Shown here: one piece after another, positions 56 through 39,218 of the stretch
How positions within the stretch are numbered: the first letter of the stretch is position 1
Layout: every line of letters starts with the position of its first letter
Virus genome (UHGV): UHGV-0139000
Direction: 5' to 3' (one strand)
DNA: 41,137 nucleotides
Source: a virus
Notes under the pieces: model-generated
Told to the model about the DNA's origin: nothing
Database searches by the model: none
What the model saw: only the letters and a program-made list of their open reading frames with translations
Program-made: the position numbers and the translations under genes

Positions 56-103
56 ATGGCGCTGTTAATCACTAAAAAATGCATCAATTGTGATATGTGT
101 GAA
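56..103 (+). pseudogene. yfhL: orphaned native 5' end of host ferredoxin gene (first 16 codons) left at attL
   Basis: ATG at 56 encodes [16 protein letters not shown], then reads into phage DNA and stops after 2 codons (stop 110..112). A near-identical N-terminus ([16 protein letters not shown]) heads the intact ferredoxin ORF at 40827..41087. Confidence 0.6.
86..103. repeat. attL core (18-bp direct repeat)
   Basis: Exact copy of 40857..40874; flanking bases show partial similarity further left. Confidence 0.8.
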
Positions 104-298
104 ATTAAATAAAAATACATTTATTTTCATGGTGATGCAGTAATGTGTTATTGAATGTGTTATTGAATTTATGGTGCAAAAAAATTTTGCATACGTTCAG
201 CAACACAAAGAGCTCCCCTTTCTATAAAGGTTCATTTGAGACTCCCCCTTGACTCCCTCTTCGAAATTGAAGACCATTAACTGTACATAATTACAGTC

Positions 299-577
299 AT
301 GGATAATATTATGCGCAGAAAAGAATCAAACGTTAGCAGTTTGCCGGAACTCACCAATTTTGAGGTAAGCTATTCCCTAGTTACCAATGAAGTTTACTTG
401 TCTGCATCCTTCACTGATAACATGGCCTGTATACCAAACTGGCCCTTACAAGAATTTCCGGATCAACTAATATGCATTTCTCGAGCAAAAGCTATTGCCC
501 TAATCGAAGAGCTCCAGAAGACCATCGACTATATGGACGCAGGAATCGATCGACAATCAGGTAGCCTGCTCCAGTAG
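299..577 (+). CDS. hypothetical protein (92 aa), cargo gene
   Basis: ORF in visibly AT-rich DNA between attL and the tail-fibre switch; no recognisable motif. Confidence 0.35.
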   Translation: MDNIMRRKESNVSSLPELTNFEVSYSLVTNEVYLSASFTDNMACIPNWPLQEFPDQLICISRAKAIALIEELQKTIDYMDAGIDRQSGSLLQ

Positions 578-710
578 CTGGCGAGTTTTATACTCGTTCC
601 CTGCAACAATGGGCTTTTGGTAAGGCACTCACAAATAAGGAATTCGTTAAGGCTTTTGTTCTGGAGACTCTGAAAGATACAAGGAATCAGTTGATGGCTG
701 GTTTGATCAT

Positions 711-751
711 ACTAATTAATATATTGTCAGACTCACAATATATTAATTAGT
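711..751. repeat. perfect 17-bp inverted repeat with 7-nt spacer (actaattaatatattgt / cagactc / acaatatattaattagt)
   Basis: Arms 711..727 and 735..751 are exact reverse complements; lies between the two cargo ORFs. Confidence 0.7.
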
Positions 752-878
752 GGTAGAACATAAAACCGAGTTCTTGACTTTCAATAGCTATTATATGCGA
801 TCAACAACCTTAACCACCTCCTTATATTTTATGAGATACTCAAACAATTTAAATTTATGAGCAAAGGAAAATAATAAA

Positions 879-1724
879 GTGAATAAAAATCCCTGGGATA
901 TTCCAGCATGGCACGCTCTGGGCCGAGAAGCATCTTTAGTTACACAGCTCATTGGTTCTGGGGCAACAGCCATAGGTAAAGCCAATTATGCAGACAAAAT
1001 AGGTGAATATTACACAGCATTTTTTGGGCTTTCTGTAGGTTTTGAGAGACTTGCTAAACTAATACTTGTTGCACACTATGCCATTGAACACAAAGGGAAA
1101 ATGCCTGATGAGAATATTGTAAGAAAATTTGGACATAAGCTCATTGAATTAACCAACGAGGTTGATAGTATTTCTAAAAAAATGCAACTATCTCTGAGAT
1201 ATTCACGTCCTACACATAAAATTACCTACAAAATACTTGAATGTTTAGATTCCTTTGCTGATGCCCGACGGGGACGTTACGCAAATTTCTCCTCATTAAG
1301 CAGCCCCAATTTAACCAATAATGAACCTATTAATAAATGGTGGGGAGAAGTAGCCGAGAGTATCCTTGAAAAACATTATTATTATACAGTTGAACAAAGA
1401 CGTGTTGAAGAAAATGCTAGGTTTATCAATGCCACTCTTTCACCGTATACAACGGTCATGTATATGAATGAAAGTACCAACATTATGCAAGACCTTATAT
1501 CAGCCTCCATCCGTACTGGACAAAATACCATTGTTCAAAAGTGGGGAAGATTCTATTCTCTTAGCATCGCTCGTTGGCTTGCCACAGTATTAGCAGAACT
1601 GTCTGATATAGCTTCTCATAAATATGGAATAATTAGTTTTTATGGCCTTAGTGAACATTGTTGCAGTTATATAGTTGAAGATAGTTTTTTAAAAAACAGA
1701 AAAATATGGCCACTTCGCCAATAG
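879..1724 (+). CDS. hypothetical protein (281 aa), cargo gene of unknown function
   Basis: Long ORF with GTG start at 879 preceded by aaggaaaa; AT-rich codon usage unlike the surrounding phage genes; occupies the position where the invertase 3' half should be. Confidence 0.6.
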   Translation: MNKNPWDIPAWHALGREASLVTQLIGSGATAIGKANYADKIGEYYTAFFGLSVGFERLAKLILVAHYAIEHKGKMPDENIVRKFGHKLIELTNEVDSISKKMQLSLRYSRPTHKITYKILECLDSFADARRGRYANFSSLSSPNLTNNEPINKWWGEVAESILEKHYYYTVEQRRVEENARFINATLSPYTTVMYMNESTNIMQDLISASIRTGQNTIVQKWGRFYSLSIARWLATVLAELSDIASHKYGIISFYGLSEHCCSYIVEDSFLKNRKIWPLRQ

Positions 1725-1728
1725 TTAA

Positions 1729-2043
1729 CTAGAAAATCTGCATAAGGGGGAGAAATCCCCCACCTGTAATAACATAACTACTAAAATTAACACCTTGTTC
1801 GCACAACTCCTCCACCAGCACGACAAGATGCCGCACACTGCGCCCCAGCCGATCCAGCTTCCAGACAACCAGAGTGTCACCTGCCGATAATGTCCTGAGC
1901 AGTTTTTTCAGTCCCGGCCTTTCGGACTTTGTACCGCTTATCTTGTCTTCAAAAAACAGCTCGCATCCTGCACAGTTCAGCGCATTACGTTGTAGATCTG
2001 TGTTCTGGTCATTTGTTGACACACGTACATAGCCAATAAGCAT
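1729..2043 (-). pseudogene. truncated Gin/Pin/Hin-family serine DNA invertase (N-terminal catalytic part only)
   Basis: MLIGYVRVSTNDQNTDLQRNAL...DTLVVWKLDRLGRS matches the invertase catalytic domain as I recall it; similarity ends after about 88 residues (near 1780) and the C-terminal HTH domain is missing. Confidence 0.8.
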
Positions 2044-2069
2044 AGTGGATCCCTCTGACAAAAGCAGGA

Positions 2070-2501
2070 ATGATGCCATTTGCTCGTTATTTCTGCATTT
2101 TCATAAACGTTGGTTTGGGAGAAGCGGCAACGAGGAACGTCGGAACGGATACCGGGCAAGTACCAGATATGAGTAGTTTTACAACGGGGCACTCTGGAGC
2201 AGCAGACTGGCCGAATCCTAAATCTGGATGGAGTAAGGGGCCGGATGGGGTAATTACACAATGGGGTATTTTCGGTTTCCCCGTTGGACAGACAGGGACG
2301 AATGTTGTTTTCCCGCTACCTTTCCCCGCGCGGGTCGAATCAATTACACTGACAATGGCAGATATCCAGGAGTCTCTGCTTTCTCCAGCAACCATGCCTG
2401 CTTATGGAGTTAACTCAACTGGTACTTCAAGAACGGGTTTTACAGCCCGTATGTCAGGCGCCGGTGGGTTTAATCTTTGCTATATAGCGAAAGGGAGATA
2501 A
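2070..2501 (+). CDS. alternative (currently unexpressed) tail-fibre C-terminal cassette inside the invertible segment
   Basis: Reading frame runs through gix-like site L encoding ...NVGLGE, the same peptide the active fibre encodes across site R; followed directly by a Tfa gene. The true coding part begins at the crossover (about 2110). Confidence 0.55.
   Translation: MMPFARYFCIFINVGLGEAATRNVGTDTGQVPDMSSFTTGHSGAADWPNPKSGWSKGPDGVITQWGIFGFPVGQTGTNVVFPLPFPARVESITLTMADIQESLLSPATMPAYGVNSTGTSRTGFTARMSGAGGFNLCYIAKGR
2097..2124. other. gix/hix-like recombination site L of the invertible segment
   Basis: ttggtttgggagaag (2110..2124) is the exact reverse complement of cttctcccaaaccaa at 3948..3962; the site is an imperfect 26-bp palindrome of the AAACC-NN-GGTTT type. 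Confidence 0.65.
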
Positions 2502-2505
2502 CAGA

Positions 2506-2949
2506 ATGAATAAAGTTAAAAGTGTTTACAGCCCGTCCGAAAATGCAATCTACAACGCAGCGCTATATGAAAGTTATATCAAGGAGGGGACATGGCCGCA
2601 GGATGGTATTGAAATCAGCGATGAGGATGCTGTCAGATTTAATGGGGGAAATAAGCCAACAGGAAAAATGCTGGGAATGGTTTCAGGGACCCTTGCATGG
2701 GTTGATGAGCCGCCGCTTTCACCAGAACAGAAAATATCAGATGCAGAAAACATGAAAGCCACATTTCGTGCAAAAGCTGACAGTGAAATATCCTGGCGTC
2801 AGGATGCTGTTGATGCTGGTATCGCAACTGATGAAGAAACTTCAACTCTCACCCAATGGAAGAAATACCGTGTGCTGCTGATGCGTGTTGATACGTCAAC
2901 AGCACCCGATATTGAATGGCCTACGCCTCCGGCAGCTCAGGCCAGATGA
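2506..2949 (+). CDS. tail fibre assembly protein (alternate copy, Tfa')
   Basis: 147 aa; C-terminus TSTAPDIEWPTPP mirrors the C-terminus of the convergent Tfa at 2921..3514; sits after the alternative fibre cassette. Confidence 0.7.
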   Translation: MNKVKSVYSPSENAIYNAALYESYIKEGTWPQDGIEISDEDAVRFNGGNKPTGKMLGMVSGTLAWVDEPPLSPEQKISDAENMKATFRAKADSEISWRQDAVDAGIATDEETSTLTQWKKYRVLLMRVDTSTAPDIEWPTPPAAQAR

Positions 2950-3514
2950 CATCAGGCGCGGTGCTGGTATCTGTTGCCGTCACCGCGTCAATGTAATCCA
3001 GCACGACGTTAAGTCGGGTTGTTTCTGCCTGCGTCAGTTTCCGCCCGGCCTGTAATTTCAGCTGAATCAGACTAATGGAAGCCATTGCTGCATCAATCAG
3101 TGACTGGCGCTGTGCTTCTGCCGCGTCTACTGCGGCACTGTGTTGTGCCTCAGTGTCTGTCACCCATTTCTCACCATCCCATTTATCGTATGGCGTTAAC
3201 GGTGAAATCGTGACATAACCGTCTTTGATGGCACCGATATAATCCACTGTAACAGCTGCGCCATTTTCAGTTGAGTAAACGGTCTCATTGCGATGGTCTT
3301 CTTCATGGCTCCATCCCTTACCCGTAAATACTGCCACTTTTCCCGGAATGTTTTCGCCCGGGTCAATACCAGTGGAACAGGCGGGTATACTTACGCCAGT
3401 ATTAATATATTCATCAGACCAGCCGGTATATTCATACGTTACTGCATTATAATAAAAACAACGCATATCGCCCGGCACTGTAGCCAGCCCATTTTCATCA
3501 AAAACAGGTTTCAT
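2921..3514 (-). CDS. tail fibre assembly protein (Tfa, active orientation)
   Basis: 197 aa immediately downstream of the tail-fibre gene; C-terminus TSTAPDVIWPELP shared with the Tfa' copy. Confidence 0.7.
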   Translation of the reverse strand: MKPVFDENGLATVPGDMRCFYYNAVTYEYTGWSDEYINTGVSIPACSTGIDPGENIPGKVAVFTGKGWSHEEDHRNETVYSTENGAAVTVDYIGAIKDGYVTISPLTPYDKWDGEKWVTDTEAQHSAAVDAAEAQRQSLIDAAMASISLIQLKLQAGRKLTQAETTRLNVVLDYIDAVTATDTSTAPDVIWPELPEA

Positions 3515-4326
3515 TATTTAGCCCTCACCAGAAAGTTAAATGCAATATTTCGCGGTCTGACAGCAACAAAATTCACACCATCACCCACAGAGTTACTGGT
3601 GAAATTAAATCGTGAAAATCCTGGCTGATTTCCGGCGATGCCATCATGAAAGTTAATTGCGTGTCCCGCACCTTCGCCTACATTCCCGGCAAACTGAGAA
3701 AAGTTTGTAGCTGCCTGCCAGCTTAATAATTCGCGACCACCGTCTGCACCTCGCCCGTCATCCCAGATACGAATGAAATCACCGCGGGCTTCAGGTAATA
3801 CCAGCGAAGGAAATACTTTCGCCAGCACAGGATAATCAGTGGCAGAGAATTTCGCGCCGTTGAACTTCAAAAACACCATACTGGACCAGCTGTCGATTAC
3901 AGTATTTGGCATTGCAGCGGACGGCCAGAAGAACGGAACGCCAATAGCTGGAGCACCTTCTCCCAAACCAAGGTTTTCGAGAGCTGTTTTCACCGTGCCG
4001 TCCGATTTGATATCGCCAAACGGATTCTTGCGGCTCAGGTATTCAACAGCAAACCCCGATCCCAGCAATTCAACAAAACCGGGCAGATCACCATTATCAA
4101 GCACATCCCGTTGCGTTTTATCACTTACAAACTGGGCCAGAGCTGCAGCAATAAAGCTGGCCTGCCGAATAACCTTATTGACTTGCGCACTGGAGGCTTT
4201 CCCTGCTGTAAATCCAGATAAAAGCGCGGGCAACGCTTCCCATTCCTCCTGCGATATAACATTGGCATTTCGATCCGTTGCAAACGCTTTAAAGTCATTT
4301 TTCGCCATCAGAGTAATACTCCCCAT
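3514..4326 (-). CDS. tail fibre protein (constant N-terminal part plus currently joined variable C-terminal part)
   Basis: 270 aa; gix-like site R lies inside it and encodes [10 protein letters not shown]; downstream Tfa; preceded by baseplate genes. Confidence 0.7.
3948..3974. other. gix/hix-like recombination site R inside the tail-fibre gene
   Basis: ttctcccaaaccaaggttttcgagag: 26-bp imperfect palindrome; 15 bp identical in inverted orientation to site L. Confidence 0.65.
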
Positions 4327-26449: not shown

Positions 26450-26645
26450 GAGTGGAACCACCTGCCCCCACCTGGAACCACCTTTTCCTAACCTTTCCCT
26501 CAATCGACTTATATATATATATGGGGTTTCTAGTAGAAAGGCGGTTCCAGTGGTTCCAGTGGTTCCGCCCCGCTTGCCACAAGGTCTGCAAGGTGGAACC
26601 TCCTTCTCTTTTAGGTGGTTCCGCGTGGTTCCAGCGGTTCCCAAA
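26450..26645. repeat. iteron-type replication origin
   Basis: Nine copies of GGTTCC/GGAACC (26454, 26474, 26543, 26552, 26561, 26595, 26617, 26627, 26636), several as GTGGTTCCA in both orientations, flanking (TA)n at 26509..26522; overlaps the 3' end of the primase gene. Confidence 0.7.
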
Positions 26646-28797
26646 CCTTGCATTTTTTCCCCCCAATTCGCCTTTGGGCACGCTTATACCCGCAATTTTG
26701 CAAAACATTACTAATTCGCATTTCTTCGCGTTTTCCGATGCGGTCAGGATTTAGCCCAATCGCATCACGCAAAACATCACTTGCGCGTAAAAATTCGCAA
26801 TTTCGCGGAAGTTCATTAGCCATCAGGTCTGGCGTGTCGAGCCATTTCTCTACCGTTTCAAGCCAAGCATCCTTGATGGTGTACTGTTCATGGACACTCG
26901 CTGCCAGTTGTTCAGCCTCACGGAACTGGATACCCCCCAGACGCTGAAACACCTCACGAGCCTCAGCCCAAAGTAAAAGGAGATCTCTTTTTATCGCTTT
27001 CACGTCGACTTTCGACACTTCCACGGGGAGCCAGCGACGGTTACCAGTCTTGTCCGCAAGGAATTCGTCCTCATTGGTGGTACCAACGAACACCAGGCGA
27101 CGAGGAAACTGGGTGGCGAACTCCCGGTATTTCGGGATCCAGTTTTCGTGAGTACGCGTCACAAACGCTTTGATTGACTCCAGCTCTTTGGTATTAAGTC
27201 CGCGCAGTTCACCAATCTCTGCCACCAGCCGACCACGCATTTTTCGAGCGAGATCATCGTCTTTTTCGGCAAAAGAGATTTCAGTAAAAAACGCAGGATC
27301 AGGGCTCAGTGCCTCCACTCCGGAAGACTTACCGCAGCCCTGCGGACCAACGAGGATCGGCACCATATCCGCTTTGATGCCTGGCTCCAGTACTCGCCCC
27401 GCCAACGCGGTCCACATGTACATAGACACCGCACGGGTATAAGGCGTGTCGGCTGTACCGAAGTGCGTATGGTAGAAACATTCGATGCGCGGCACGCCAT
27501 CCCACTCCAGCCCGTTCAGCCAGGTGATCGCTGAATCGAATGGTTGTTCATCGGCTGCAAGTAACACCACATCGCGAATAAGTTCACGACCAACAGGTTT
27601 AAATCCCCGCTTTTCCATCGTGATGCGCAGGCGCGCATAATCCGCATCGGTGAATGCTCGCCATTGTCCGGATCCTGCAGGGGCAAACATGATTTCGTCG
27701 CGGAACTGGTCAAAGCGAATATCGATGTCCACAAAATCAGGGCGTACTACTGCTTTGGCTGCGTTGCTGATGGTTGCCTCGATACGCCCCCATTTATCAC
27801 GCTCGAAAGCAGGCAGCGGTAAAGGTTCCGCCACTTCGGTGCTGGTCAGATCTTCGAAATCGTCGTTGCGGATCCCGATGGCATTAAGGAAATCTCCGTC
27901 ATCACGATGCGCACAACTGGCATGCAGGCATTTAAAATGCCCCTGCTCAAAGCCCGCGGTTCCCGCAGGAAAATAAGCTGTGCTTGTTGGATCGCCCCCG
28001 CTACTGTGGCCGTCTTCAAACGGACAGCGGATATATCGTTCACCATTTGCGCCATCCAGCAGCGTCCAGCCATTGGCATCAAGATATTCAGCTGTATCAT
28101 CCGTCGCGCCGGGCGTGAATGCTGATCGGTCGCGCATCTTCGTGTTGCCCGCTTCGGTGGTTACCGACACAGGGAGTTGTTCAGCCAGGCGCTGCCACAG
28201 CGTTTCAAGCTGCTCACCAGTAATAGCCGGAGGTTCATCCGGCAAACCACCGTCCCATTCAATACGCGCGCCGCTGCTGTGCGTACCACAGGCAACGAAC
28301 TGCTGCCCGTTCGCCAGCAACTCGATAATGCCCATATCCCCCGCCAGGCGATGGATACGCTTACGGAAATCACCATCAACGGCCAGCAGATACAGACACT
28401 TATTACTGTTTGCTCGCCAGCGTCGCGGCGGCAACTCCCCCAGAAGTTGCACAAGCGTTTTGCGAATATCTGCCTGAATGTCTTCATCTTCGCTATCGCA
28501 GTCCAGCGCCAGCCAGCCATGGCCTGTACGCACGCAGATGCCATAATCCGGTTCATTCGACCAGCGGGCAAAATCATGCTCAGTAACAACATACCCGGTC
28601 CATTGAGCAATACCGGTGACCTGGCGGTCCCGGTTATAGCGACTTGGCGTCTTACCCAGCGCTTTCAGTTTACTATCAGGGGATATGGTCGCACCGGGGT
28701 TACATACAACTGGGAGAAGATGCTCAGTTCTCCCCAATACCAGGTCGAAATGAAACCACTCATCAGGCGTAGCTCCCCATGGTTTGCTATCGGACAT
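26611..28797 (-). CDS. replicative primase-helicase (P4 alpha-like)
   Basis: 728 aa; Walker A VGPQGCGKSSG in the C-terminal half; N-terminal region primase-like; origin iterons at its 3' end; start 3 nt after the cro stop. Confidence 0.75.
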   Translation of the reverse strand: MSDSKPWGATPDEWFHFDLVLGRTEHLLPVVCNPGATISPDSKLKALGKTPSRYNRDRQVTGIAQWTGYVVTEHDFARWSNEPDYGICVRTGHGWLALDCDSEDEDIQADIRKTLVQLLGELPPRRWRANSNKCLYLLAVDGDFRKRIHRLAGDMGIIELLANGQQFVACGTHSSGARIEWDGGLPDEPPAITGEQLETLWQRLAEQLPVSVTTEAGNTKMRDRSAFTPGATDDTAEYLDANGWTLLDGANGERYIRCPFEDGHSSGGDPTSTAYFPAGTAGFEQGHFKCLHASCAHRDDGDFLNAIGIRNDDFEDLTSTEVAEPLPLPAFERDKWGRIEATISNAAKAVVRPDFVDIDIRFDQFRDEIMFAPAGSGQWRAFTDADYARLRITMEKRGFKPVGRELIRDVVLLAADEQPFDSAITWLNGLEWDGVPRIECFYHTHFGTADTPYTRAVSMYMWTALAGRVLEPGIKADMVPILVGPQGCGKSSGVEALSPDPAFFTEISFAEKDDDLARKMRGRLVAEIGELRGLNTKELESIKAFVTRTHENWIPKYREFATQFPRRLVFVGTTNEDEFLADKTGNRRWLPVEVSKVDVKAIKRDLLLLWAEAREVFQRLGGIQFREAEQLAASVHEQYTIKDAWLETVEKWLDTPDLMANELPRNCEFLRASDVLRDAIGLNPDRIGKREEMRISNVLQNCGYKRAQRRIGGKKCKVWEPLEPRGTT

Positions 28798-28800
28798 GGG

Positions 28801-29013
28801 TTAAGCCTTTTTATCGTTTTGTGAGCCATACAACAGCCAATTAGGGTCGCAATCCAATGCTATAGACATTTCAAGAAGATAACGTGGCCGAGCAATAACA
28901 CCACTTTCAATTCTGTTTATTGCCTGCTGGCTCACTCCTGTGAGCTCAGCCAACGTAACTTGCGTCATTTTGAGTTCTTTACGTCGTTCTTTTACTCGGG
29001 TCGCTAAGGTCAT
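28801..29013 (-). CDS. Cro-like HTH repressor
   Basis: 70 aa from the ATG at 29013 (GAGG 8 nt upstream); HTH MTQVTLAELTGVSQQAINRIESG; divergent from cI. Confidence 0.75.
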   Translation of the reverse strand: MTLATRVKERRKELKMTQVTLAELTGVSQQAINRIESGVIARPRYLLEMSIALDCDPNWLLYGSQNDKKA

Positions 29014-29133
29014 TGCTTTCACCTCATACAATTTTAGTGGTATTTAGCAACAACAAACGAGGTTTGTCAAATACAACAAAAATTGTTTTTAATGTGGGTA
29101 TACACATTAATACAACCCAGAAGGACTAATCCC
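29014..29133. promoter_or_regulatory. divergent cro/cI promoter-operator region
   Basis: Contains the operator-like dyad atacaa-N6-ttgttt (29071..29088), palindrome caaac-gag-gtttg (29054..29066) and an extra atacaa half-site (29110..29115). Confidence 0.55.
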
Positions 29134-29757
29134 ATGTCTCTCGCAGCCCGTTTTAAAGCACGTCGTTTGGAATTAGGAATGACTCAAGTGGAAGTAGCGA
29201 ATTCTGCAGGGGTTAGCCAACAATCCATAGAATCCATCGAAAGTGGACGAACCAGAAAGCCACGCAATCTTCTGGATCTGGCTAAGGCCTTGAAATGTAG
29301 CCCAGACTGGCTACTGAACGGTAAAAATATTATGCCTCTCGCGGAGATAAGTACCAGACGCATACCTATATTAAGTTACGTTCAGGCAGGAGAGCTTACA
29401 GAAGCAAGAGACATAACAGATCTGACAGGGGAATTTGAATATATTTTGGCAGACTCTGACATTCCAGAAACATGCTTCGCATTACGTATTGATGGCGACA
29501 GCATGCAACCAGAGTTTAAAGAAGGAGACATTGTTATCATCGATCCTGATCTATGTCCTGCACCAGGGGAGTTTGTTGTCGCCAAAAACGACGGTCACGA
29601 AGCTACATTTAAAAAATACCGTCCATTAGGAATCGGCATCGACGACTTTGAATTAATCCCCCTAAATCCTGATTACCCTATTTTTCGTAGTGCAGATATG
29701 AACTTACAGATCATAGGTGTAATGATCGAACACCGTATTTACCGCCGTAAACGTTAG
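29134..29757 (+). CDS. CI-type repressor with LexA-like S24 autopeptidase domain
   Basis: N-terminal HTH (MTQVEVANSAGVSQQSIESIESG); Ala-Gly cleavage site in SYVQAGEL; C-terminal domain with GDSM (Ser) and FKKY (Lys); AGGA 8 nt before the ATG. Confidence 0.85.
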   Translation: MSLAARFKARRLELGMTQVEVANSAGVSQQSIESIESGRTRKPRNLLDLAKALKCSPDWLLNGKNIMPLAEISTRRIPILSYVQAGELTEARDITDLTGEFEYILADSDIPETCFALRIDGDSMQPEFKEGDIVIIDPDLCPAPGEFVVAKNDGHEATFKKYRPLGIGIDDFELIPLNPDYPIFRSADMNLQIIGVMIEHRIYRRKR

Positions 29758-29775
29758 TATTCCCACCGTAAATAT

Positions 29776-29795
29776 CGGGAGGCGTAACAGCCTCC
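29776..29795 (+). terminator. hairpin immediately after cI (weak terminator candidate)
   Basis: gggaggc-gtaaca-gcctccc, 7-bp GC-rich stem; only a weak T tract follows. Confidence 0.35.
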
Positions 29796-29883
29796 CTTAC
29801 CCCATTTGTAAAGTCTTACAAATTAAATTCACTTAAATATCAATAAAGTAGTATTCACACCCCACAAAATACCACATTTGTGG

Positions 29884-29912
29884 TTTACACAATACAACTC
29901 AAATTGTATCTT
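29884..29912 (+). promoter_or_regulatory. early (PL-like) promoter overlapped by a perfect operator palindrome
   Basis: -35 tttaca (29884..29889), 16-nt spacer, -10-like gtatct (29906..29911); operator atacaa-ctcaaa-ttgtat (29892..29909) matches the 29071..29088 site at 17 of 18 positions. Confidence 0.5.
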
Positions 29913-30079
29913 TAGCCACAAGTCGAACGGCGCGACTCTAAACCATGCGTCGGGACCGTGGCGGGACAGGATGTCGGCAATACGGGTCAGTAAGTTCCCT
30001 TTGGGGTGCGGCGAAGCACTGTCTACTGATACAAGTCGAAGCCGCCGAACCACCAAAGTGAACTGAATGAGGAAACGGC

Positions 30080-30274
30080 GTGAAAACGTATAAACCGCTC
30101 AAAGGTGAATGCCCTGCTTGCCAAACACAGCTTCAGACACCAAAGCCAAAACGATACCAAATCAACGAATGTTATGAGCACTGCCCTGGATGTGGTGCTT
30201 TCCTGCATACCATTGCAACGCACTGGCGTGTCCGCTTCAACCTTGTGGTACCACGTACGCACAATACCAACTGA
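30080..30274 (+). CDS. small Cys-pair zinc-ribbon-like protein (64 aa), first early gene
   Basis: GTG start with GAGG 7 nt upstream; CPAC...CPGC pairs; followed by an intrinsic terminator. Confidence 0.5.
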   Translation: MKTYKPLKGECPACQTQLQTPKPKRYQINECYEHCPGCGAFLHTIATHWRVRFNLVVPRTHNTN

Positions 30275-30305
30275 ATCATCCATGTAATTGCTGTGTGTAG
30301 TCTTT

Positions 30306-30331
30306 GCCCGCCGCAAGTGACGGGCTTTTTT
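30306..30331 (+). terminator. rho-independent terminator after the first early gene
   Basis: gcccg-ccgcaagtga-cgggc followed by tttttt. Confidence 0.6.
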
Positions 30332-30390
30332 ATGTCTGAAAGCGCACTCGCAACAGCGCGCTCCCCGATATGAAAAAAGGAATACAACCG

Positions 30391-30540
30391 ATGAAACCTG
30401 AACACCTCTATCGACTGACGGGGCGCGATGTTCTCCGTTATCGCCGTAAAAACTTCGATTTGATGACCGGTCTGGCCGTTGCCACTGCGCTCGGTCTGAT
30501 CATCACTTTCATTCTCCTTGTAGCGAGGACCACAGTATGA
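30391..30540 (+). CDS. small membrane protein (49 aa), below the ORF-track length cutoff
   Basis: ATG at 30391 with AAGGA 10 nt upstream; [49 protein letters not shown] (basic N-terminus, C-terminal helix); stop overlaps the next ATG (ATGA). Confidence 0.4.
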   Translation: MKPEHLYRLTGRDVLRYRRKNFDLMTGLAVATALGLIITFILLVARTTV

Positions 30541-31439
30541 GTTTAGAAACCAGTCTCGAACTTAATAATCAACTTCTGGCACAACATAATGCGCTGCTTG
30601 AACGTCTTATCCGCACGATGGCATCAGGTATTGTTATGCATCCTGACACGATTTCACGAGTGCAGGAATGTCGGGATACAGCAACTGAAACTGAAAATAT
30701 GTCAGCGGCAATGACACTGGATGATCTGGAGTTCAGCGACGTTATCGCACTGGCTGGTTTCTACCCGGTAGCCACCCCTATCACAGAAGACATGCTGCAA
30801 CGTGCTGTTGCCTACCGTGATGCTGAAGGCGATAAACGAGTAGTTCAGATTGATGCTCTCGACAGCGCATTGCAGGGCGTCAAACGAGCCAGGGCACTGC
30901 ATAAACCCGCTCTTCTGGACCTGTCCCGTAACATTCTTAAGTTCTGGGACGACCTGCCAACCATCGGCGAGCGACGTGCTTTTGCCGAGCAACTACTTGA
31001 TGCACCTGCAGATGGGCGTGATGAAGTTAAGCCGAAAAAGGCCAGTAACAAAGATGGAGAACGCACGGGGCCGTTTTACGTCAAAAATGTATCCGGCACA
31101 GCAGCCAGTGAACTCCACACCTTACGCAAGTTGAACGAGATGCTTAAAAAAGGCCATATCGAGATCAACCGTGTTGAGTACCTTCAGCTGCAGGAAGAAT
31201 TTGCACGCAGAGACGCAGCAAATTCCAGCCAGAATAATGACGCCAAAGATGACCATACAATTGATTTCGCTGCACTACGCAAACAAGCTGAAGGGTTGAT
31301 CCTCCAGTTAGCAAAAGGGGGTTACCGGGCAGAAGCTATTGCAATTCTGGAAAAACAGGGAGCCAGGAAACTTGGTGAAGTAACGGATGAAAATCTCGCT
31401 GAAGTAATCACCCTGGCTGAAAAAGCACTGGAGGGTTAA
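30537..31439 (+). CDS. hypothetical early protein (300 aa)
   Basis: Operon position before the nuclease and polymerase genes; no motif recognised. Confidence 0.55.
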
Positions 31440-31441
31440 TC

Positions 31442-32743
31442 ATGCCAGACGTTCATGCACAACTTTCTCCATCATCAGCGCATCGATGGATGCGCTGCCC
31501 AGGAAGTCTGGCGCTGGAGGCCACACAACCGGATAAAGAAACAACTTTTGCAATCGAGGGCACTGCAGCGCACGCGCTTGCTGAAAAAGTTCTACGAAAC
31601 AGGCAAAGCCACCCGGAACACTACGCCGGATGCAATGTTTCTATGTTTCTCGGCTCATACCCCCTTCGCGAAAATCCTGATGATACATCTGGCCCACAGG
31701 TGGATGATGAAATGGTCGAAGCCGTTGGCCGGTATGTTGATACGGTCTGGACTCTTGCACAGAATAATGAACTATTGGTTGAACAACGTGTTGATTTCTC
31801 ACATATAACGGGGGTGGAAGAATCTTTCGGAACTGCCGACGGCATAATCATCGCTGGTAACGAATTACAAATCCACGACCTGAAATATGGCAAAGGCGTC
31901 CGCATTGATGCAGAACAAAATGAGCAACTACAACTGTATGCTCTGGGTGCGCTCGAACAATTCAGCATGCTGTATGACTTTGAGACTGTAAGATTATTTA
32001 TTCACCAGCCAAGGCTCAACCACGTTTCAGAATGGTCGTTAACCGTGCAGGAACTTCAGTCTTTCGGTAAACGAGCACAGGAGGCCGCAACCAGTGCGAT
32101 CCTTGTTCTCAATATTGCTGAATGCGAAGGCATTGAGACACTACCGCTGGAAAACTTCATACCTGGAGAAAAACAGTGCCGCTTCTGTAAAGCAAAAGCT
32201 ATTTGCACTGCCCAGAAAATGCAGCATTTACAAACAGCGGCCAGCGACTTTGAAGATCTGACAAAGCCTGTCAGCGAAATAATCACCAATGCCAGCGCAC
32301 GTGTACCTCTGTTAACCATTGAGCAGCTTGCGGAGATCTATAGCCAGGCCGACTTTATTGAGTCCTGGCTAAAGGCAGTACGGGACCGGGTTCACAATGA
32401 ACTCAATGCCGGACATCCGGTACCGGGGTTTAAACTGGTAACAGGAAAACAAGGTAACCGGGCCTGGAGTGATGAAGAGGCAGCTCGCGCACTTCTGAAG
32501 GACCAGTTCAGGTACAAAACTGAAGAAGTATTCGACTTTAAACTTATTAGTCCCACAAAAGCCGAAAAACTTATCAAAAAGGCCAGTCCACGCCGTTGGT
32601 CAAAAGTCGAGGCACTGATAACACGAGCTGATGGTAAACCAACCGTCGTTCCCGAGTCAGACCCACGCCCCGCACTCAATATCAACCCTGTAAATGATTT
32701 CGACGACGTATCCGACGATACGCTAACCGCAGACCTCATCTGA
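31442..32743 (+). CDS. PD-(D/E)XK family nuclease (Cas4/RecB-like, DUF2800-type)
   Basis: N-terminal [14 protein letters not shown], central IHDLKYGKG motif and C-terminal Cys cluster ([10 protein letters not shown]); typical companion of phage PolA modules. Confidence 0.65.
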
Positions 32744-32758
32744 TTTAAGGAAATACCC

Positions 32759-33307
32759 ATGAAACTGAAGCTGAACAATGTTCGTCTGGCCTTCCCGTCT
32801 CTGTTTGAAGCTAAAACTGTAAACGGCGAAGGCGATCCGCGTTTCTCCGCAGTATTTTTAATGTCTCCCAAACACCCACAACTGGAAGAAATCCGTAAAG
32901 CTATGAAGCAGGTAGCGAAGGAAAAATGGGGAGAGAAGTGGGAGCCCATTTATAACCAGCTGGAGAAAAAACTCAATCTGTGCCTGCATGATGGTGATGA
33001 AAAAGCAGAGTATGAAGGCTTCCCCGGCAATTTCTTCCTGAATGCTGCTAACAAAGCGCGCCCAGCTGTTCTTGATCGCGATCGTTCGCCACTTATTCAG
33101 GCTGACGGACGTCCTTATGCAGGGTGCTATGTAAACGCCGTTATCGATATCTGGGCACAGGACAATAATTTCGGTAAACGCATTAATGCCTCACTCGGCG
33201 GAGTCCAGTTCCTGCGAGACGGCGATGCATTCGCTGGCGGCGGAGTGGCAAGCGCTGACGATTTCGACGATATCAGCGAAGGTGCTGATGCTGAAGCACT
33301 AATTTAA
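32759..33307 (+). CDS. ssDNA-binding-like protein (DUF2815-type) of the replication module
   Basis: 182 aa directly after the nuclease; assignment from recalled family and synteny. Confidence 0.5.
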   Translation: MKLKLNNVRLAFPSLFEAKTVNGEGDPRFSAVFLMSPKHPQLEEIRKAMKQVAKEKWGEKWEPIYNQLEKKLNLCLHDGDEKAEYEGFPGNFFLNAANKARPAVLDRDRSPLIQADGRPYAGCYVNAVIDIWAQDNNFGKRINASLGGVQFLRDGDAFAGGGVASADDFDDISEGADAEALI

Positions 33308-33359
33308 CCCTACTTCATAGACGCCCGGTTAAACACCGGGCTACTGATTAGGCGTATAA

Positions 33360-33989
33360 TCACTCAGGAATCTTAATCTTTCTCAATTCTTTATTTAGTT
33401 CACAGATCTTTTTCTTAGACGGGAAAGTATCATACATCCAAAAACCAACAGTCTCTAAAACTATTATCATAACCATATACACAAGATAATTTAAAAGGCC
33501 TTCATTTTGCCCTATGGAAATAATGCAGATAATAGAAAAAAGGGTAAACAGCACAAAACACAGAAAGGAAAACAGACGACTAATAATAAATAAAAAACCT
33601 GAAAAATCAACATTAATAAAAAACACTCCGTTATCTTTCTCTATATAATTCTGAAGCTTAATCAACTGATTTATATACTGTCTTTTTTCTAATCTATTGC
33701 AAATGTAAATAACATCTCTTCGGTTATAAGAGGATTGCAATTTCAGCGCATCACGAATAATTTTATCATTTATTCTTTTTTCTATGGCTTTCTTATCCTC
33801 CTTATCCAGATAACGTTCATACTTAATTAAATATAAAATTAACTTCTTGACATATTTAGGCTCTTTATACTTATAATTAAAAATAATCTTTCTTATCCAG
33901 ACTCCCATAACAATCAAACATGAAAAAATATATCCAGCTATTTTCTCCAGATGCTCTGTATGGTCAATCAAGTATTGGATCATATGCAT
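33360..33989 (-). CDS. membrane protein (209 aa), antisense AT-rich insert in the replication operon
   Basis: One N-terminal and two C-terminal hydrophobic helices with a Lys/Glu-rich central region; strongly AT-rich codons; opposite strand to all neighbours; stem-loop at 33325..33343 on its 3' side. Confidence 0.6.
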   Translation of the reverse strand: MHMIQYLIDHTEHLEKIAGYIFSCLIVMGVWIRKIIFNYKYKEPKYVKKLILYLIKYERYLDKEDKKAIEKRINDKIIRDALKLQSSYNRRDVIYICNRLEKRQYINQLIKLQNYIEKDNGVFFINVDFSGFLFIISRLFSFLCFVLFTLFSIICIISIGQNEGLLNYLVYMVMIIVLETVGFWMYDTFPSKKKICELNKELRKIKIPE

Positions 33990-34035
33990 AATTAATCTTT
34001 TAATCAGTTAATAGAATAAAAACCAAGGTAAACAC

Positions 34036-36099
34036 ATGTCCAATATACTATGGGGCGACCTGGAAACCTATTGCGAAATCCCTATTACGAACGGTACCCA
34101 TGCGTATGCCGAAGGCGTTGAAGTGATGCTTTTCGCATGGGCTATCAACGACGGGCCAGTAAACGTGTGGGATATCACTGCCGGTGGTGGTATTCCACAC
34201 GGCTTATACGAAGCAATCGCAGACCCTGAAACCCTGCTTTATTTTCATAACTCTCACTTCGACCGCACCGTCCTGCGTTATGCAATGCCGCGCCTGGCAC
34301 CGCCAGTCGAACGTTGGCGCGACACAATGGTGCAGGCGCTGGCGCACGGTCTCCCGGGGTCTCTGGGGGAACTCTGCGAAATACTCGGCGTCCCGCAAGA
34401 CAAAGCGAAGGACAAAGAAGGTAAAGCGCTGATCCAGCTGTTCTGTAAGCCCCGCCCGAAAAACAGCAAACTGCGCCGTGCCACCAGCAAAACCCACCCG
34501 GAAGAATGGCGGCGCTTTGTTGCTTACGCCGGACTGGATATCGAGGCAATGCGCGAAGTCTATAAACGTCTGCCGAAGTGGAATTATCAGGGGACAGAGC
34601 TGGCGCTCTGGCATCGTGATCAGCAGATCAACGACCGGGGCGTCTGCATGGACATGCAACTCGCGCGCGCTGCGATCGAAGCGGTAGACCAGGAGCAAAA
34701 GCGCCTGGCAAAGCGTACACAGGAAATGACTGATGGCGAAGTGCAGGCAGCCACACAACGAGACGCGTTGATTAAGCACATTGTTGAATCCTACGGTGTG
34801 GAGCTACCAGACATGCAACGCAGTACTCTGGAACGTCGTATTGCCGACCCCGATTTACCATCTGCCGTGAAAGAACTGCTGGCTATCCGCCTGCAGGCCA
34901 GTACTACCAGCACCAGTAAATACAAGGCACTGATGAAAGGCGTAAGCCACGACGGGCGCTTACGCGGTACGCTACAGTTCTGCGGGGCGTCACGTACCGG
35001 TCGTTGGGCCGGACGGCTATTCCAGCCCCAGAACCTTCCCCGCCCTTCACTAAAACAGGAACAAATAGACGAAGGCATCGAAGCACTGAAAGCCGGATGT
35101 GCAGACCTGCTGTTTGACAATATCATGGAACTAACCAGTTCAGCGTTACGTGGCTGCATTATCGCGCCAACAGGCAAAAAGCTGGTGGTAAGTGACTTGT
35201 CGAACATTGAAGGCCGTATGCTGGCATGGCTGGCGGGAGAAGAATGGAAACTGAATGCATTCAGAGAGTACGACGCCGGAACGGGTCCGGACTTATATAA
35301 ACTGGCGTATGCAAAAGCTTTCGATATTGCACCAGATGATGTTGATAAACACATGCGTCAGATCGGTAAAGTCATGGAACTCGGTCTGGGTTATGGTGGT
35401 GGTGTGTCGGCCTTCATCACTTTTGCACTGGTTTACGGTCTCGATCTCGACGAGCTGGCGAACGCCGCACTACCAAACATTCCCCGCGATGTTATCCGCG
35501 AGGCGAAAAGCTGGTACGACGAATCTGTTAAACGCAAGTCAACCTACGGGCTTTCTGAACGGGTATTTATCGCCTGCGACTCACTTAAACGTCTCTGGCG
35601 CCGGGCGCATCCCGCGACCTGTGATTTCTGGTACGAACTGGAGCGCACCGTCCGCACTGCAATCGCCACACCGCAAAAAACATTGTATTGCGGTTATCTT
35701 AAAATCCGCCGCGATGGCGCGTGGCTGCGCATACAGCTACCATCCGGACGCGCTGTATGCTACCCGTCTCCGGTTATCGAAAAAGGGAATATCACCTACA
35801 TGGGGGTTAACTCTTATTCGCGTAAATGGCAACGACTCAAAACCTACGGCGGAAAGCTGGTGGAGAACATCACCCAGGCGGCCGCCCGCGACATTCTGGC
35901 CGGAAACATGCCGCTTATCGAAGATGCCGGTTACAGCATTGTGCTGACGGTACACGACGAGGTGATCACCGAAGCACCTGACACAGAAGATTTCAACGAT
36001 AAAGCGCTTTCCGCACTTCTCTCCACTAACCCCGAATGGGCGCCCGATATCCCACTGAACGCTGGCGGTTTTGAGGCGTACCACTACCGTAAGGATTAA
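34036..36099 (+). CDS. family A DNA polymerase (phage type)
   Basis: Motif A DLSNIEGR, motif [17 protein letters not shown], motif C VHDEVITE; 687 aa. Confidence 0.85.
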
Positions 36100-36104
36100 C
36101 TCCT

Positions 36105-36320
36105 ATGTCATTTAAATACCGGGACAATCCACTTTATTACAGGGCTGCAAGGGAAGCTTTGCGACTTGAACAATCCGGCGAATATGACCGGGCAGCGGAG
36201 GTCTGGGCAAAAGCCAACCGCGAATCACATCACGAACTGAATCAGGAATGGAGTGAACGCAGATCTGATTTTTGCCTGATGCAGAACATGCGTGAAAAGC
36301 GTAAGGCGGTCGAAGAATGA
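36105..36320 (+). CDS. hypothetical small protein (71 aa)
   Basis: Translationally coupled within the replication operon. Confidence 0.45.
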   Translation: MSFKYRDNPLYYRAAREALRLEQSGEYDRAAEVWAKANRESHHELNQEWSERRSDFCLMQNMREKRKAVEE

Positions 36321-36616
36321 TCGTTTACGTTGCCGGGCCGATGAGCGGTTACGAGCAATTTAACCGCCCGGCCTTTCATTCCGCAGCAAAGAGGCTAACG
36401 GACAAGGGATATGTTGTGCTTAACCCCGCAACTTTACCCAATGGTTTGACACAGGCTCAGTACATGGACATCTGCCTCGCAATGCTTCGCTGTGCCGATA
36501 CGATTTATATGCTCAAAGAGTGGGAGTACTCTGCTGGCGCACGTGCAGAAAACGCGTTGGCAGAGAAACTGGAATTGAATGTGCTTTTTGAAGAGTGGGA
36601 TTCAGATGGCCTATGA
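36317..36616 (+). CDS. DUF4406-type protein (nucleoside 2-deoxyribosyltransferase-like fold)
   Basis: N-terminus MIVYVAGPMSG and overall size match the family as I recall it. Confidence 0.5.
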   Translation: MIVYVAGPMSGYEQFNRPAFHSAAKRLTDKGYVVLNPATLPNGLTQAQYMDICLAMLRCADTIYMLKEWEYSAGARAENALAEKLELNVLFEEWDSDGL

Positions 36617-36875
36617 ACGTGAAAGCCTTATCGAAAAGCACCTCGTCGCTGAAGTGAAAAAAGCTGGCGGAGTGGCCTTTAAGTTTGTATCTCCCGGTCA
36701 CCGCTCGGTACCGGATCGCATTGTCCTGCTACCAGGCGGTCGTATCGTTTTCGTTGAATGTAAATCTCCCGGCAAGCCACCACGGCCTGACCAGTTGCGC
36801 GAACATGAACGTCTGCGAAAACTGGGCTTTACCGTGGTGGTGCTGGATAGCAAAAATTTAGAGGGGATATTGTGA
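36606..36875 (+). CDS. VRR-NUC domain nuclease
   Basis: About 90 aa with ...PDRIVLLPGGRIVFVECKSPG... (D...E-x-K core); usual position beside the helicase. Confidence 0.65.
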   Translation: MAYERESLIEKHLVAEVKKAGGVAFKFVSPGHRSVPDRIVLLPGGRIVFVECKSPGKPPRPDQLREHERLRKLGFTVVVLDSKNLEGIL

Positions 36876-36880
36876 GACAA

Positions 36881-37606
36881 TCATTCTGAGCGATTTTTCT
36901 TGAGCTTAGAAGCTTTTAAAAAACATACTTTTAGTTGTTGTGTTTCTTTTATGCTTACAGGAATTAATTTCCCCTCAATTCCTTCGACACTCATAAATTC
37001 AGAGCTATTTTTTTTACAGTTCCCCAAGACAAATTTTCCGTTATAGCTTTCGATAATATAAGCATCATATTTTTTAGAATAAAAAAGAGGCTCATCTGAT
37101 AAGTATGCCCATGCCCACCCAAGGACTGAAGGAAGCATTGCTATGGATATAAAAAGCATAACCCCATGAGTTTTGTTTTTTATTCTAAATTCATTCCTAA
37201 TAAAAACAGATACTGCCCTGACACTGATAGGGCTAATAAATCCCAACAGTATTGCTTGGGTAGCCACATCCCTTATGGATTTTTCATAAAGGTATGAGCT
37301 ACCGCCATATAAATACATTGTCCAGTATGAAAGCAAAGAGGCCAAAATGAAGAAAAATAAATACACCCACCATGGAATATTCTTCTCTTCAGTATCAATA
37401 TGCAGCAAAGCGACTAAGGTGCACAAAAGTCCTAATGCAATAACAGAAAATTTAACTATTTCCTCAATCCCAATAGAAATAAAACTTACAGGGAATCCAT
37501 AAAATGAGCTGTACCCTTTGTAAAAAGAAAAAGCCATAAAATAAAGGGCGGCCAAGAGAACCGTTGTAATTGATAAATCTTTTACATTCATGATGTTCAA
37601 GAGCAC
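36881..37606 (-). CDS. polytopic membrane protein (241 aa), antisense AT-rich insert between VRR-NUC and helicase
   Basis: Four to five predicted hydrophobic helices in the first ~160 aa then a Lys-rich soluble tail; strongly AT-rich; opposite strand to both neighbours. Confidence 0.6.
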   Translation of the reverse strand: MLLNIMNVKDLSITTVLLAALYFMAFSFYKGYSSFYGFPVSFISIGIEEIVKFSVIALGLLCTLVALLHIDTEEKNIPWWVYLFFFILASLLSYWTMYLYGGSSYLYEKSIRDVATQAILLGFISPISVRAVSVFIRNEFRIKNKTHGVMLFISIAMLPSVLGWAWAYLSDEPLFYSKKYDAYIIESYNGKFVLGNCKKNSSEFMSVEGIEGKLIPVSIKETQQLKVCFLKASKLKKNRSE

Positions 37607-37629
37607 CTTTCTAATCAGGGATTTTCTTC

Positions 37630-39021: not shown

Positions 39022-39218
39022 GCGAGAAACCCGACGATTTACTCACCCCGGATGAAGTATGCCAAAAGTTAGGTATTACACAGAAAACGCTATGTGAGTG
39101 GAATATTAAGCATCGTCATCGGGCTATCCTGGCACCAATTCGTTTCAGTGCAAAAGTAGTTCGTTATGAGCGCCGAAATGTCGACGCTTTTATTCAAAAA
39201 TGTCGCAGCCAGTATTAA
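39018..39218 (+). CDS. excisionase / AlpA-like small DNA-binding protein
   Basis: 66 aa next to and overlapping the integrase 3' end; LLTPDEVCQKLGITQKTLCEW HTH-like segment. Confidence 0.55.
   Translation: MSEKPDDLLTPDEVCQKLGITQKTLCEWNIKHRHRAILAPIRFSAKVVRYERRNVDAFIQKCRSQY

Follow-up and report, generated by a model that had tools for sequence, protein, structure and literature searches.

The prophage genome UHGV-0139000 (hereafter the window, meaning the whole stretch of 41,137 nucleotides that was analysed) carries an invertible tail-fibre switch that is very likely of the e14 P-segment type, orphaned by the loss of its own invertase and flipped in trans by a Pin-family invertase resident in the same cell. 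The host element is an apparently complete 41-kb myovirus prophage, integrated in Escherichia coli at the 5' end of yfhL. As the cis elements (both crossover sites and the enhancer region) appear to have survived while the adjoining invertase gene was destroyed, the switch would be an orphan, with Pin-family invertases from other loci of the cell doing the flipping.

Crossover sites and fibre cassettes

The arms of an inverted repeat, at positions 2105-2124 and 3957-3976, are complementary at 19 of 20 positions, and exact alignment recovers the 15-bp exact inverted core announced in a preliminary description of this DNA (TTGGTTTGGGAGAAG). Exact inverted pairs of 15 bp are expected by chance about 0.004 times per 3 kb. 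The 14-mer TTCTCCCAAACCAA is found as two exact copies in the 41-kb window, one per strand, and no further copies were found there with up to two mismatches allowed. The arms overlap two 26-bp sites that are imperfect palindromes in opposite orientation with a matching central dinucleotide (TT/AA): a left site of the pixL type at 2098..2123 (TTTTCATAAACG TT GGTTTGGGAGAA, central TT at 2110-2111) and a right site of the pixR type at 3958..3983 (TTCTCCCAAACC AA GGTTTTCGAGAG, central AA at 3970-3971). The coordinates given earlier for the left site are sound, whereas those of the right one (3948-3974) lay about 10 bp too far to the left. No third crossover site, of the kind that underlies multiple inversions in p15B Min, is present in the 41-kb window.

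From site centre to site centre the segment measures 1862 bp, and ORFs and Pfam matches (PF21882, PF02413) agree that it holds two convergent cassettes of a fibre tip and a Tfa chaperone, as had been proposed. The expressed fibre gene (3514..4326, minus strand, 270 aa, ORF start at 4326) consists of a constant N-terminal part lying outside the segment (3972..4326, minus strand; NCBI start at 4308, longest-ORF start at 4326) and a variable, currently expressed tip within it (3514..3969, minus strand), the DNA of which is 92-96% identical to tips of lambdoid mEp213/mEp043 and of phage 500465-2. The expressed Tfa chaperone paired with this tip is encoded at 2921..3514 on the minus strand (PF02413, E 1.4e-27). 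On the plus strand lie a silent alternative tip with a gp53-like_C domain (2112..2501; PF21882, E 1.4e-10) and the silent Tfa chaperone paired with it (2506..2949; PF02413, E 9.8e-33). Each fibre tip is followed by its Caudo_TAP chaperone, and the two tfa genes overlap by 29 bp, tail to tail.

The peptide G-L-G-E is encoded in frame at both crossover sites. When the segment is inverted in silico at the central dinucleotides, the silent tip (2112-2501) becomes fused to the constant fibre part and the fibre changes from 270 aa to an uninterrupted 248 aa; the fibre ORF thus stays open, which agrees with the in-frame swap through a GLGE junction that had been predicted. Sites, in-frame swap and cassettes all fit the original identification of a switch of the tail-fibre C-terminus of the Gin/Cin/Pin/Hin type. 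The exact cassette pair of the window occurs in one genome only, and the opposite orientation of that pair was not seen.

The truncated invertase and what it retains

Next to the left site lies the remnant of a Pin-type serine invertase gene (1729..2043, minus strand), of which positions 1777-2043 encode residues 1-89, including the region of the catalytic Ser10, and positions 1729-1776 are an unrelated read-through of 16 codons followed by a stop. Alignment to residues 1-89 of K-12 PinE (83/89 identical) confirms the earlier view of a fragment of about 88 residues devoid of the DNA-binding domain. Of the 145 positions of the Pfam Resolvase profile (PF00239), the remnant matches 2-98 alone; there is no Pfam match to an HTH domain, and helix E is missing along with the HTH DNA-binding domain. 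The identical locus is annotated by NCBI as a pseudogene ('incomplete; missing C-terminus'). Since the same junction is common to 43 complete E. coli genomes, the truncation is not a sequencing error; a frameshift was likewise rejected, there being no invertase homology downstream in any frame. No other invertase fragment, the missing 3' half included, was found in the 41-kb window, and its displacement within the window by a quasi-site inversion was rejected on that ground.

The place of the invertase 3' half is taken by a cargo gene of 281 aa (879..1724, plus strand) together with its flanks (about 233-1776), so that the prophage's own invertase would have been lost when this block replaced everything past codon 89. 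The cargo protein is a member of a conserved family with no match in Pfam, PHROGs, PADLOC, NCBIfam or PDB sequences; its AlphaFold model is all-alpha (pLDDT 83), with no fold match in the PDB. The gene, possibly defence-related, is carried by 44 E. coli genomes, in single copy in each. Taken together, the remnant and the left site share 93.7% DNA identity with the K-12 pinE region. A diverged invertase remnant and a variant left site occur in strain 357900.

A recombinational enhancer was looked for as a pair of Fis sites within the 5' part of the invertase gene, spaced by about 48 bp and lying some 100 bp from the closer crossover site. The retained 5' part harbours a candidate at 1959..2022, with two Fis-like 15-bp cores of the form G-N13-C (GTGTCAACAAATGAC at 2022-2008 and GTGCAGGATGCGAGC at 1973-1959) situated 49 bp apart, the distal one not being A/T-rich. 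The centre of the proximal core lies 95.5 bp from that of the left site; in the Hin system the proximal Fis site is about 100 bp from hixL. This region, which hardly differs from its K-12 pinE counterpart and is also conserved in Mu gin, is to judge by that conservation a probable recombinational enhancer.

In the mechanism that we propose, each 26-bp site would be bound by a serine invertase dimer and the two sites would synapse on the Fis-bound enhancer in the retained part of the invertase gene, with strand cleavage and exchange taking place at the central AA/TT. Turnover of the 1862-bp segment would then replace the last 150 or so fibre residues and their Tfa with the alternative pair, and the swapped tip would presumably alter the receptor and hence the host range of the virion. 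We infer the action of a serine invertase in trans, the functioning of the enhancer and the change in host range alike.

Inversions among prophages sharing the truncation

Evidence for flipping comes from the comparison between assembled genomes. Three pairs of sister prophages differ in orientation, the first two being independent of each other. In the first (phage record ON470579 and E. coli 22AR0747), the flanks are 100% identical around a reversed segment of 1834 bp, and once this segment is turned round in silico at the central dinucleotides, the two agree with 0 mismatches over 9616 bp; among the near-identical prophages of this pair, 18 genomes have one orientation and three the other. 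A search for published literature on the vB_EcoM-606R2 phage records found none. The second pair, from an STEC lineage with another cassette set (97-3250 versus 01_3327, 03_3013 and B1_2), shows 0 mismatches over 4901 bp with in-silico inversion and 1213 without it. In the third (EPSSH018 and CAU16175), the segments are 99.83% identical and lie in opposite orientations relative to the remnant.

A further rearrangement is found in CAU16175, where the right crossover site has undergone recombination with a quasi crossover site corresponding to 219..244 of the window (TTTCTATAAAGG TT CATTTGAGACTC, where the attL arm meets the cargo region). The exchange was reciprocal and conservative and took place at the central dinucleotide, both hybrid junctions matching the prediction exactly with no bases gained or lost; the longest exact run common to the two sites is 5 bp. 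The block inverted in this way includes the cargo gene and the truncated invertase gene. An exchange with these features bears the mark of a serine invertase.

As an identical truncation occurs in both orientations and alongside the quasi-site inversion, the segment must have flipped repeatedly since the truncation. Comparison of these genomes shows that precise inversions and one quasi-site inversion took place after that event. The preliminary description had considered the switch probably frozen, a view that is not upheld, since prophages with the same truncation are found in both orientations and the first two pairs differ by inversion alone. A relic locked after truncation, with one fixed tip per lineage, would agree with the lack of a functional invertase in cis or anywhere in the 41-kb window and with the single orientation of 18 of the 21 near-identical prophages; many carriers, moreover, have no detectable PinE-like or PinQ-like gene, and the segment may be locked there at present. 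Such a relic is nonetheless unlikely, being contradicted at the lineage level by three orientation pairs with an identical truncation junction and by a quasi-site inversion that takes in the truncated gene, because these inversions must postdate the truncation. Judging by the 18:3 skew, flipping may be rare in many hosts or not occur there at all.

That the host inverted the segment by homologous recombination between the 20-bp inverted repeats, with no invertase taking part, is very improbable. Exchange anywhere in the 15-bp exact core gives the same products as exchange at the central dinucleotide, so that the three orientation pairs alone cannot separate the two mechanisms. However, repeats of 15-20 bp are too short to be efficient substrates of RecA-dependent recombination, and yet inversions arose in at least two lineages within intervals in which 4.9-9.6 kb of DNA gained zero substitutions. 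The event in CAU16175 also argues against it, as sites sharing only those 5 bp underwent reciprocal exchange exactly at the central dinucleotide of the quasi-site. That the opposite orientations are assembly artefacts, or stem from independent identical truncations in prophages already oppositely oriented, is scarcely credible: nothing supports it directly (an assembler's choice from a mixed population would itself imply flipping), complete-genome assemblies are not confused by a 20-bp repeat, the pattern repeats in genomes from many laboratories, and independent truncations are implausible given an identity of 99.6-100% among carriers in both cargo gene and junction.

Candidates for an enzyme flipping this orphaned e14-type switch in trans exist in some of the hosts. 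The chromosome of the window's own strain holds two more PinE-family 3' halves, as deduced from place counts; these counts, from which extra invertase copies in 82.0312 and other carriers were scored with the cargo gene joined to an invertase piece as query, cover number only, and the extra copies could be defective. A PinE-like or PinQ-like gene is present in all three inverted genomes of the first pair, and no such chromosomal gene was detectable in 10 of the 18 forward-orientation genomes, in CAU16175 or in 8D. The PinE-like gene by itself occurs in two of the three inverted genomes versus one of the 18 forward ones (Fisher p of about 0.04, with shared ancestry ignored), and any candidate invertase in 3/3 versus 8/18 (p of about 0.12, not significant and confounded by shared ancestry). 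Orientation is suggestively but weakly associated with a PinE-like gene, and no conclusion is drawn from this comparison.

It is conceivable, though we would not favour it outright, that this is a naturally 'outsourced' host-range switch, in which the fibre made depends on the invertase-bearing elements sharing the cell and stray invertase activity also drives quasi-site rearrangements such as that of CAU16175. If so, neighbours would set the host-range state of a prophage. A truncated invertase beside an invertible segment should not be taken as a locked switch, and both fibre alleles need to be considered by annotation pipelines and in predictions of prophage host range.

Comparison with known systems

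The e14 P segment and its invertase PinE, from a cryptic prophage of K-12, are a closer relative of this system than Mu G, because both 26-bp sites, with their central AA/TT, are identical in sequence to those of e14. The earlier designation as Mu G-segment-like thus stands for the type of switch and not for the nearest relative. As is the case here, e14 combines 26-bp sites having this central dinucleotide with a constant fibre part, a tip and Tfa, a reversed Tfa and tip, a 29-bp overlap of the tfa genes and an adjoining invertase. The repeat TTGGTTTGGGAGAAGG reported for e14 (PMC12529663) is the one found here, and the segment measures 1797 bp in e14 (PMC12529663) versus 1862 bp here. The e14 segment flips in vivo (PMC4272514, PMC12529663) and is inverted by PinQ of Qin (PMC12529663). 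Unlike in e14, the invertase is here cut after residue 89 and its place taken by a cargo gene, the prophage seems to be complete and not cryptic, and the fibre-tip cassettes are different.

The G segment of Mu with Gin and the C segment of P1 with Cin resemble the present system in mechanism and in the arrangement of a constant part, a variable tip with its chaperone, and alternatives to these. Their enhancer is part of the invertase gene, at its 5' end, a region conserved at the DNA level between the window and Mu gin. They differ in having segments of 3-4 kb, much longer fibres and intact invertases, and the Mu sites (TTATCCAAAACC TC GGTTTACAGGAA and TTCCTGTAAACC GA GGTTTTGGATAA) have other central dinucleotides than the AA/TT found here. 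Mu deficient in gin is flipped in trans by Pin of e14. Iida and Hiestand-Nauer reportedly found in 1987 that Cin uses quasi-sites sharing the central dinucleotide.

A natural parallel is provided by prophage Phi4 of EC958 (E. coli ST131; Forde et al. 2014, PMC4134206), which likewise has an invertible tail-fibre segment bounded by 26-bp sites and an adjoining invertase that is severely truncated, with no HTH domain. PacBio reads contained both orientations, and the authors inferred an enzyme acting in trans (PMC4134206). Phi4 is a different prophage, with Mu-type sites having a central TC and a segment of 3106 bp (PMC4134206), and the evidence there is of reads within one culture, whereas here it consists of genome comparison and a quasi-site event. 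No new mechanism is proposed, the same inference having been drawn for Phi4 in 2014 (PMC4134206).

Other cases are known in which a prophage invertase inverts DNA outside its own element, as seems to happen here: PinQ and PinR act on e14 (Kirigo et al. 2025, PMC12529663), and the Salmonella H segment is acted on by Fin of Fels-2, according to the mention of Kutsukake 2006 in PMC4272514. The targets in those cases have kept their own invertase, or lost it only in laboratory mutants, whereas the loss seen here is natural and fixed in 43-44 sequenced genomes. These prophages, with the quasi-site event included, offer natural population-level evidence of cross-talk between prophage invertases, which fits the work on PinQ and e14.

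The prophage and its fibre cassettes

E. coli strain 82.0312 carries a prophage 99.9% identical to the window, situated downstream of yfhH at the 5' end of yfhL. It extends from about position 105 to the integrase gene near 40.6 kb (39215-40618, 467 aa), which occupies its far end. As the window holds the start of host yfhL (57-104, the first 16 codons) and then prophage sequence, the prophage is integrated inside the 5' end of that gene. The prophage looks complete, since genes for tail (tail sheath, tape measure, baseplate), packaging (terminase) and replication (DNA polymerase, primase-helicase) are all encoded. Unusually among temperate E. coli myoviruses of this baseplate type, it has a replication set of its own (26611-39021), with a 728-aa primase-helicase, a 687-aa family A-like DNA polymerase and a 463-aa SNF2-type helicase.

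The tail-fibre gene (3514-4326, minus strand) is followed by a gene for the fibre chaperone Tfa (2921-3514, minus strand). On the plus strand, this expressed pair is opposed by a fibre tip (2112-2501) that lacks a promoter and has a gp53-like C-terminal domain, and by another Tfa gene (2506-2949). The one strong inverted repeat returned by a repeat finder pairs 2105-2124 with 3957-3976, 19 of the 20 positions being complementary. The 26-bp crossover sites read TTTTCATAAACG TT GGTTTGGGAGAA on the left (2098-2123) and TTCTCCCAAACC AA GGTTTTCGAGAG on the right (3958-3983); the preliminary description had the left one correct and the right one about 10 bp off. The 14-mer TTCTCCCAAACCAA is present in exactly two copies in the 41 kb, one per strand, and the expected number of 15-bp exact inverted pairs in 3 kb is about 0.004. 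The inner half-site common to the two sites specifies G-L-G-E in either reading frame, and after in-silico inversion of 2110-3971 the 270-aa fibre becomes one of 248 aa, uninterrupted and ending in the gp53-like tip. The paired inverted sites and in-frame swap of the fibre C-terminus proposed at the outset are thus confirmed.

The expressed tip and Tfa cassette (2902-3984) has 92-96% DNA identity to cassettes of the lambdoid phages mEp213 and mEp043 and of phage 500465-2. The silent cassette varies among otherwise near-identical prophages, the window's version occurring together with this truncation in one genome only. This likeness and this variability suggest that cassettes have been swapped between unrelated phages.

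The truncated invertase and the cargo block

The ORF beside the left site (1729-2043, minus strand) shares 83 of its first 89 residues with K-12 PinE, the invertase of cryptic prophage e14; 16 unrelated codons and a stop follow. Pfam recognises only positions 2-98 of the 145 of the Resolvase domain and finds no HTH in this remnant. That the truncation is real and inherited follows from a tblastn search with full-length PinE, which found no other PinE piece in the window, from the NCBI annotation, where the locus is a pseudogene that lacks the C-terminus, and from the identical cargo-to-remnant junction in 43 complete E. coli genomes (44 have the cargo gene). The earlier claim of a truncated invertase without its DNA-binding domain is therefore borne out, residues 1-89 alone being left.

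Everything past codon 89 has been replaced by a cargo block (about 233-1776) with two ORFs, of 92 aa (299-577, plus strand; sole match PHROG 17793, function unassigned there) and 281 aa (879-1724, plus strand). A related prophage that O55:H7 DEC5E carries at this site has different cargo and a pinE that is full-length but frameshifted. A perfect G+C-rich hairpin (GGGGGAGAAATCCCCC, 1746-1764) stands exactly where invertase homology stops, between the convergent cargo ORF and remnant, and may be a bidirectional terminator that arrived with the cargo. In E. coli 357900 (locus L017, 1152-1348) the same cargo junction is joined to a remnant whose 5' part is only 81% identical, and the left site is a variant (TTTTCTTAAACG TT GGTTTAGGAGAA), which suggests a mosaic locus formed via recombination with another Pin-type locus.

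The 281-aa protein has no match in any domain library and no annotated domain in its family, which is well conserved (56-74% identity) in many Gammaproteobacteria and some Alphaproteobacteria; its AlphaFold model is all-alpha (pLDDT 83), with no fold match in the PDB. A 73%-identical homologue in Enterobacter lies directly after a type I restriction-modification operon (hsdM-hsdS-hsdR), beside an integrase, a neighbourhood that suggests a possible defence role.

Inversions later than the truncation

The segment has inverted since the truncation. Near-identical prophages sharing the truncated gene hold it in one orientation in 18 genomes (forward) and in the other in 3 (inverted). The truncated gene is present both in phage record ON470579 and on the E. 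coli 22AR0747 chromosome. Their flanks, of 4378 bp and 3444 bp, are 100% identical and enclose a 1834-bp stretch that is reversed between the two; when one sequence is inverted in silico at the central dinucleotides, 0 mismatches remain in 9616 bp. STEC strains, of a different lineage and with a different cassette set, behave likewise: the deposited sequence of 97-3250 shows 1213 mismatches in 4901 bp to those of 01_3327, 03_3013 and B1_2, and 0 once it is inverted in silico. EPSSH018 and CAU16175 share one segment, 99.83% identical between them, but its orientation relative to the remnant is opposite in the two.

In CAU16175 a whole block that reaches from window position 233 to the right crossover site is inverted; it comprises the 92-aa ORF, cargo gene, remnant and segment as well as an IS421 insertion (about 3.7 kb plus IS421). 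As the truncation junction lies inside this block, the inversion must be later than the truncation. The partner of the right site was a quasi crossover site, Q (219-244, TTTCTATAAAGG TT CATTTGAGACTC), at the boundary of the attL arm and the cargo region. Both new junctions, TTTCTATAAAGG TT GGTTTGGGAGAA and GAGTCTCAAATG AA GGTTTTCGAGAG (locus L019, 1757-1782 and 6821-6846), match exactly the reciprocal hybrids that Q and the right site give on exchange at the central dinucleotide, and 0 bases were gained or lost. Serine invertases acting at quasi-sites exchange strands in this way, conservatively and reciprocally at the central 2 bp without homology, as Iida and Hiestand-Nauer reportedly described for Cin in 1987, in a paper cited in PMC4134206.

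Judged from these genomes, the segment is not frozen: sister prophages of opposite orientation and the quasi-site inversion contradict the view that the switch was probably frozen. It may be a locked relic in individual hosts without a suitable invertase, but for the whole lineage this is contradicted. RecA-mediated exchange within the 15-20 bp repeat could be invoked for the simple inversions; it is unlikely, as it would hardly recur within zero-divergence intervals, and it cannot account for the quasi-site event, where the longest exact run common to Q and the right site is 5 bp and where homologous recombination is not known to yield such a homology-free exchange at the central 2 bp. Assembly artefact, or independent identical truncations, is implausible.

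Proposed source of the invertase and relation to known systems

As the window contains no intact invertase, the enzyme must come from elsewhere. Candidates were counted with a joint query of cargo gene and invertase piece; the cargo gene being single-copy in each of the 44 carrier genomes, extra match places per record could be taken, by count alone, as invertase copies. In strain 82.0312 two PinE-like 3' halves were counted, one of them at high and the other at lower identity. Among the inverted genomes, 22AR0747 and MSB1_6C have one PinE-like 3' half each, and 1296KP has a pinQ-like gene instead. The forward genomes (n=18) yielded a distant PinE-like piece in 1, a pinQ-like gene in 8 and neither in 10. 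Match-place counts gave no candidate invertase on the chromosomes of CAU16175 and 8D. The association of orientation with a co-resident invertase, kinship being ignored, is only suggestive. Forward-group ST38-like genomes have a second high-identity match to window 1500-2097 elsewhere on the chromosome and, even by sensitive search, no PinE-like 3' half; this match may represent a further invertase remnant, or else an invertase gene whose 3' half has diverged.

That fibre segments can invert is textbook matter. It has been known since the 1980s that Gin, Cin, Pin and Hin cross-complement one another, and e14 Pin was discovered through complementing gin-deficient Mu. A truncated invertase with a still-flipping segment has already been reported: in the EC958 prophage Phi4 the invertase is severely truncated and both orientations appear in PacBio reads, from which the authors inferred an enzyme acting in trans (PMC4134206). 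PinQ, encoded by prophage Qin, inverts the P segment of e14 (PMC12529663), and Fin of Fels-2 reportedly flips the Salmonella H segment (Kutsukake 2006, cited in PMC4272514). Given these precedents, action in trans by a co-resident invertase is the natural reading; what the present locus adds is clean evidence from comparison between genomes and a quasi-site rearrangement that arose in nature.

The truncation has probably spared the putative cis-acting enhancer. In the 267 bp that remain of the invertase gene, two Fis-like cores are spaced 49 bp apart, and 95.5 bp separate the centre of the first from that of the left site, a distance similar to that in Hin, where the proximal Fis site is about 100 bp from hixL (PMC3798978); the region is almost unchanged relative to K-12 pinE and conserved in Mu gin. 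We infer the identity of the enzyme, the function of the enhancer, present-day flipping in 82.0312 and an effect on host range, as follows. A Pin-family invertase from a co-resident element would bind the two sites, which would synapse on the Fis-bound enhancer kept in the remnant; strand exchange at AA/TT would invert the 1862-bp segment, and the last ~150 fibre residues and the chaperone would be swapped, changing the receptor specificity of progeny phage.

The preliminary description likened the switch to the Mu G segment, and the working principle is indeed the same. By sequence, however, the nearest known system is the e14 P segment with PinE: its two 26-bp sites are identical to both window sites, the remnant and left site share 93.7% DNA identity with the e14/pinE region, and the gene layout is the same, including a 29-bp tail-to-tail tfa overlap. 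The e14 P repeat, TTGGTTTGGGAGAAGG (PMC12529663), is the one found here, whereas Mu gix sites have TC/GA rather than AA/TT at their centre, which makes Mu G a more distant member that works alike.
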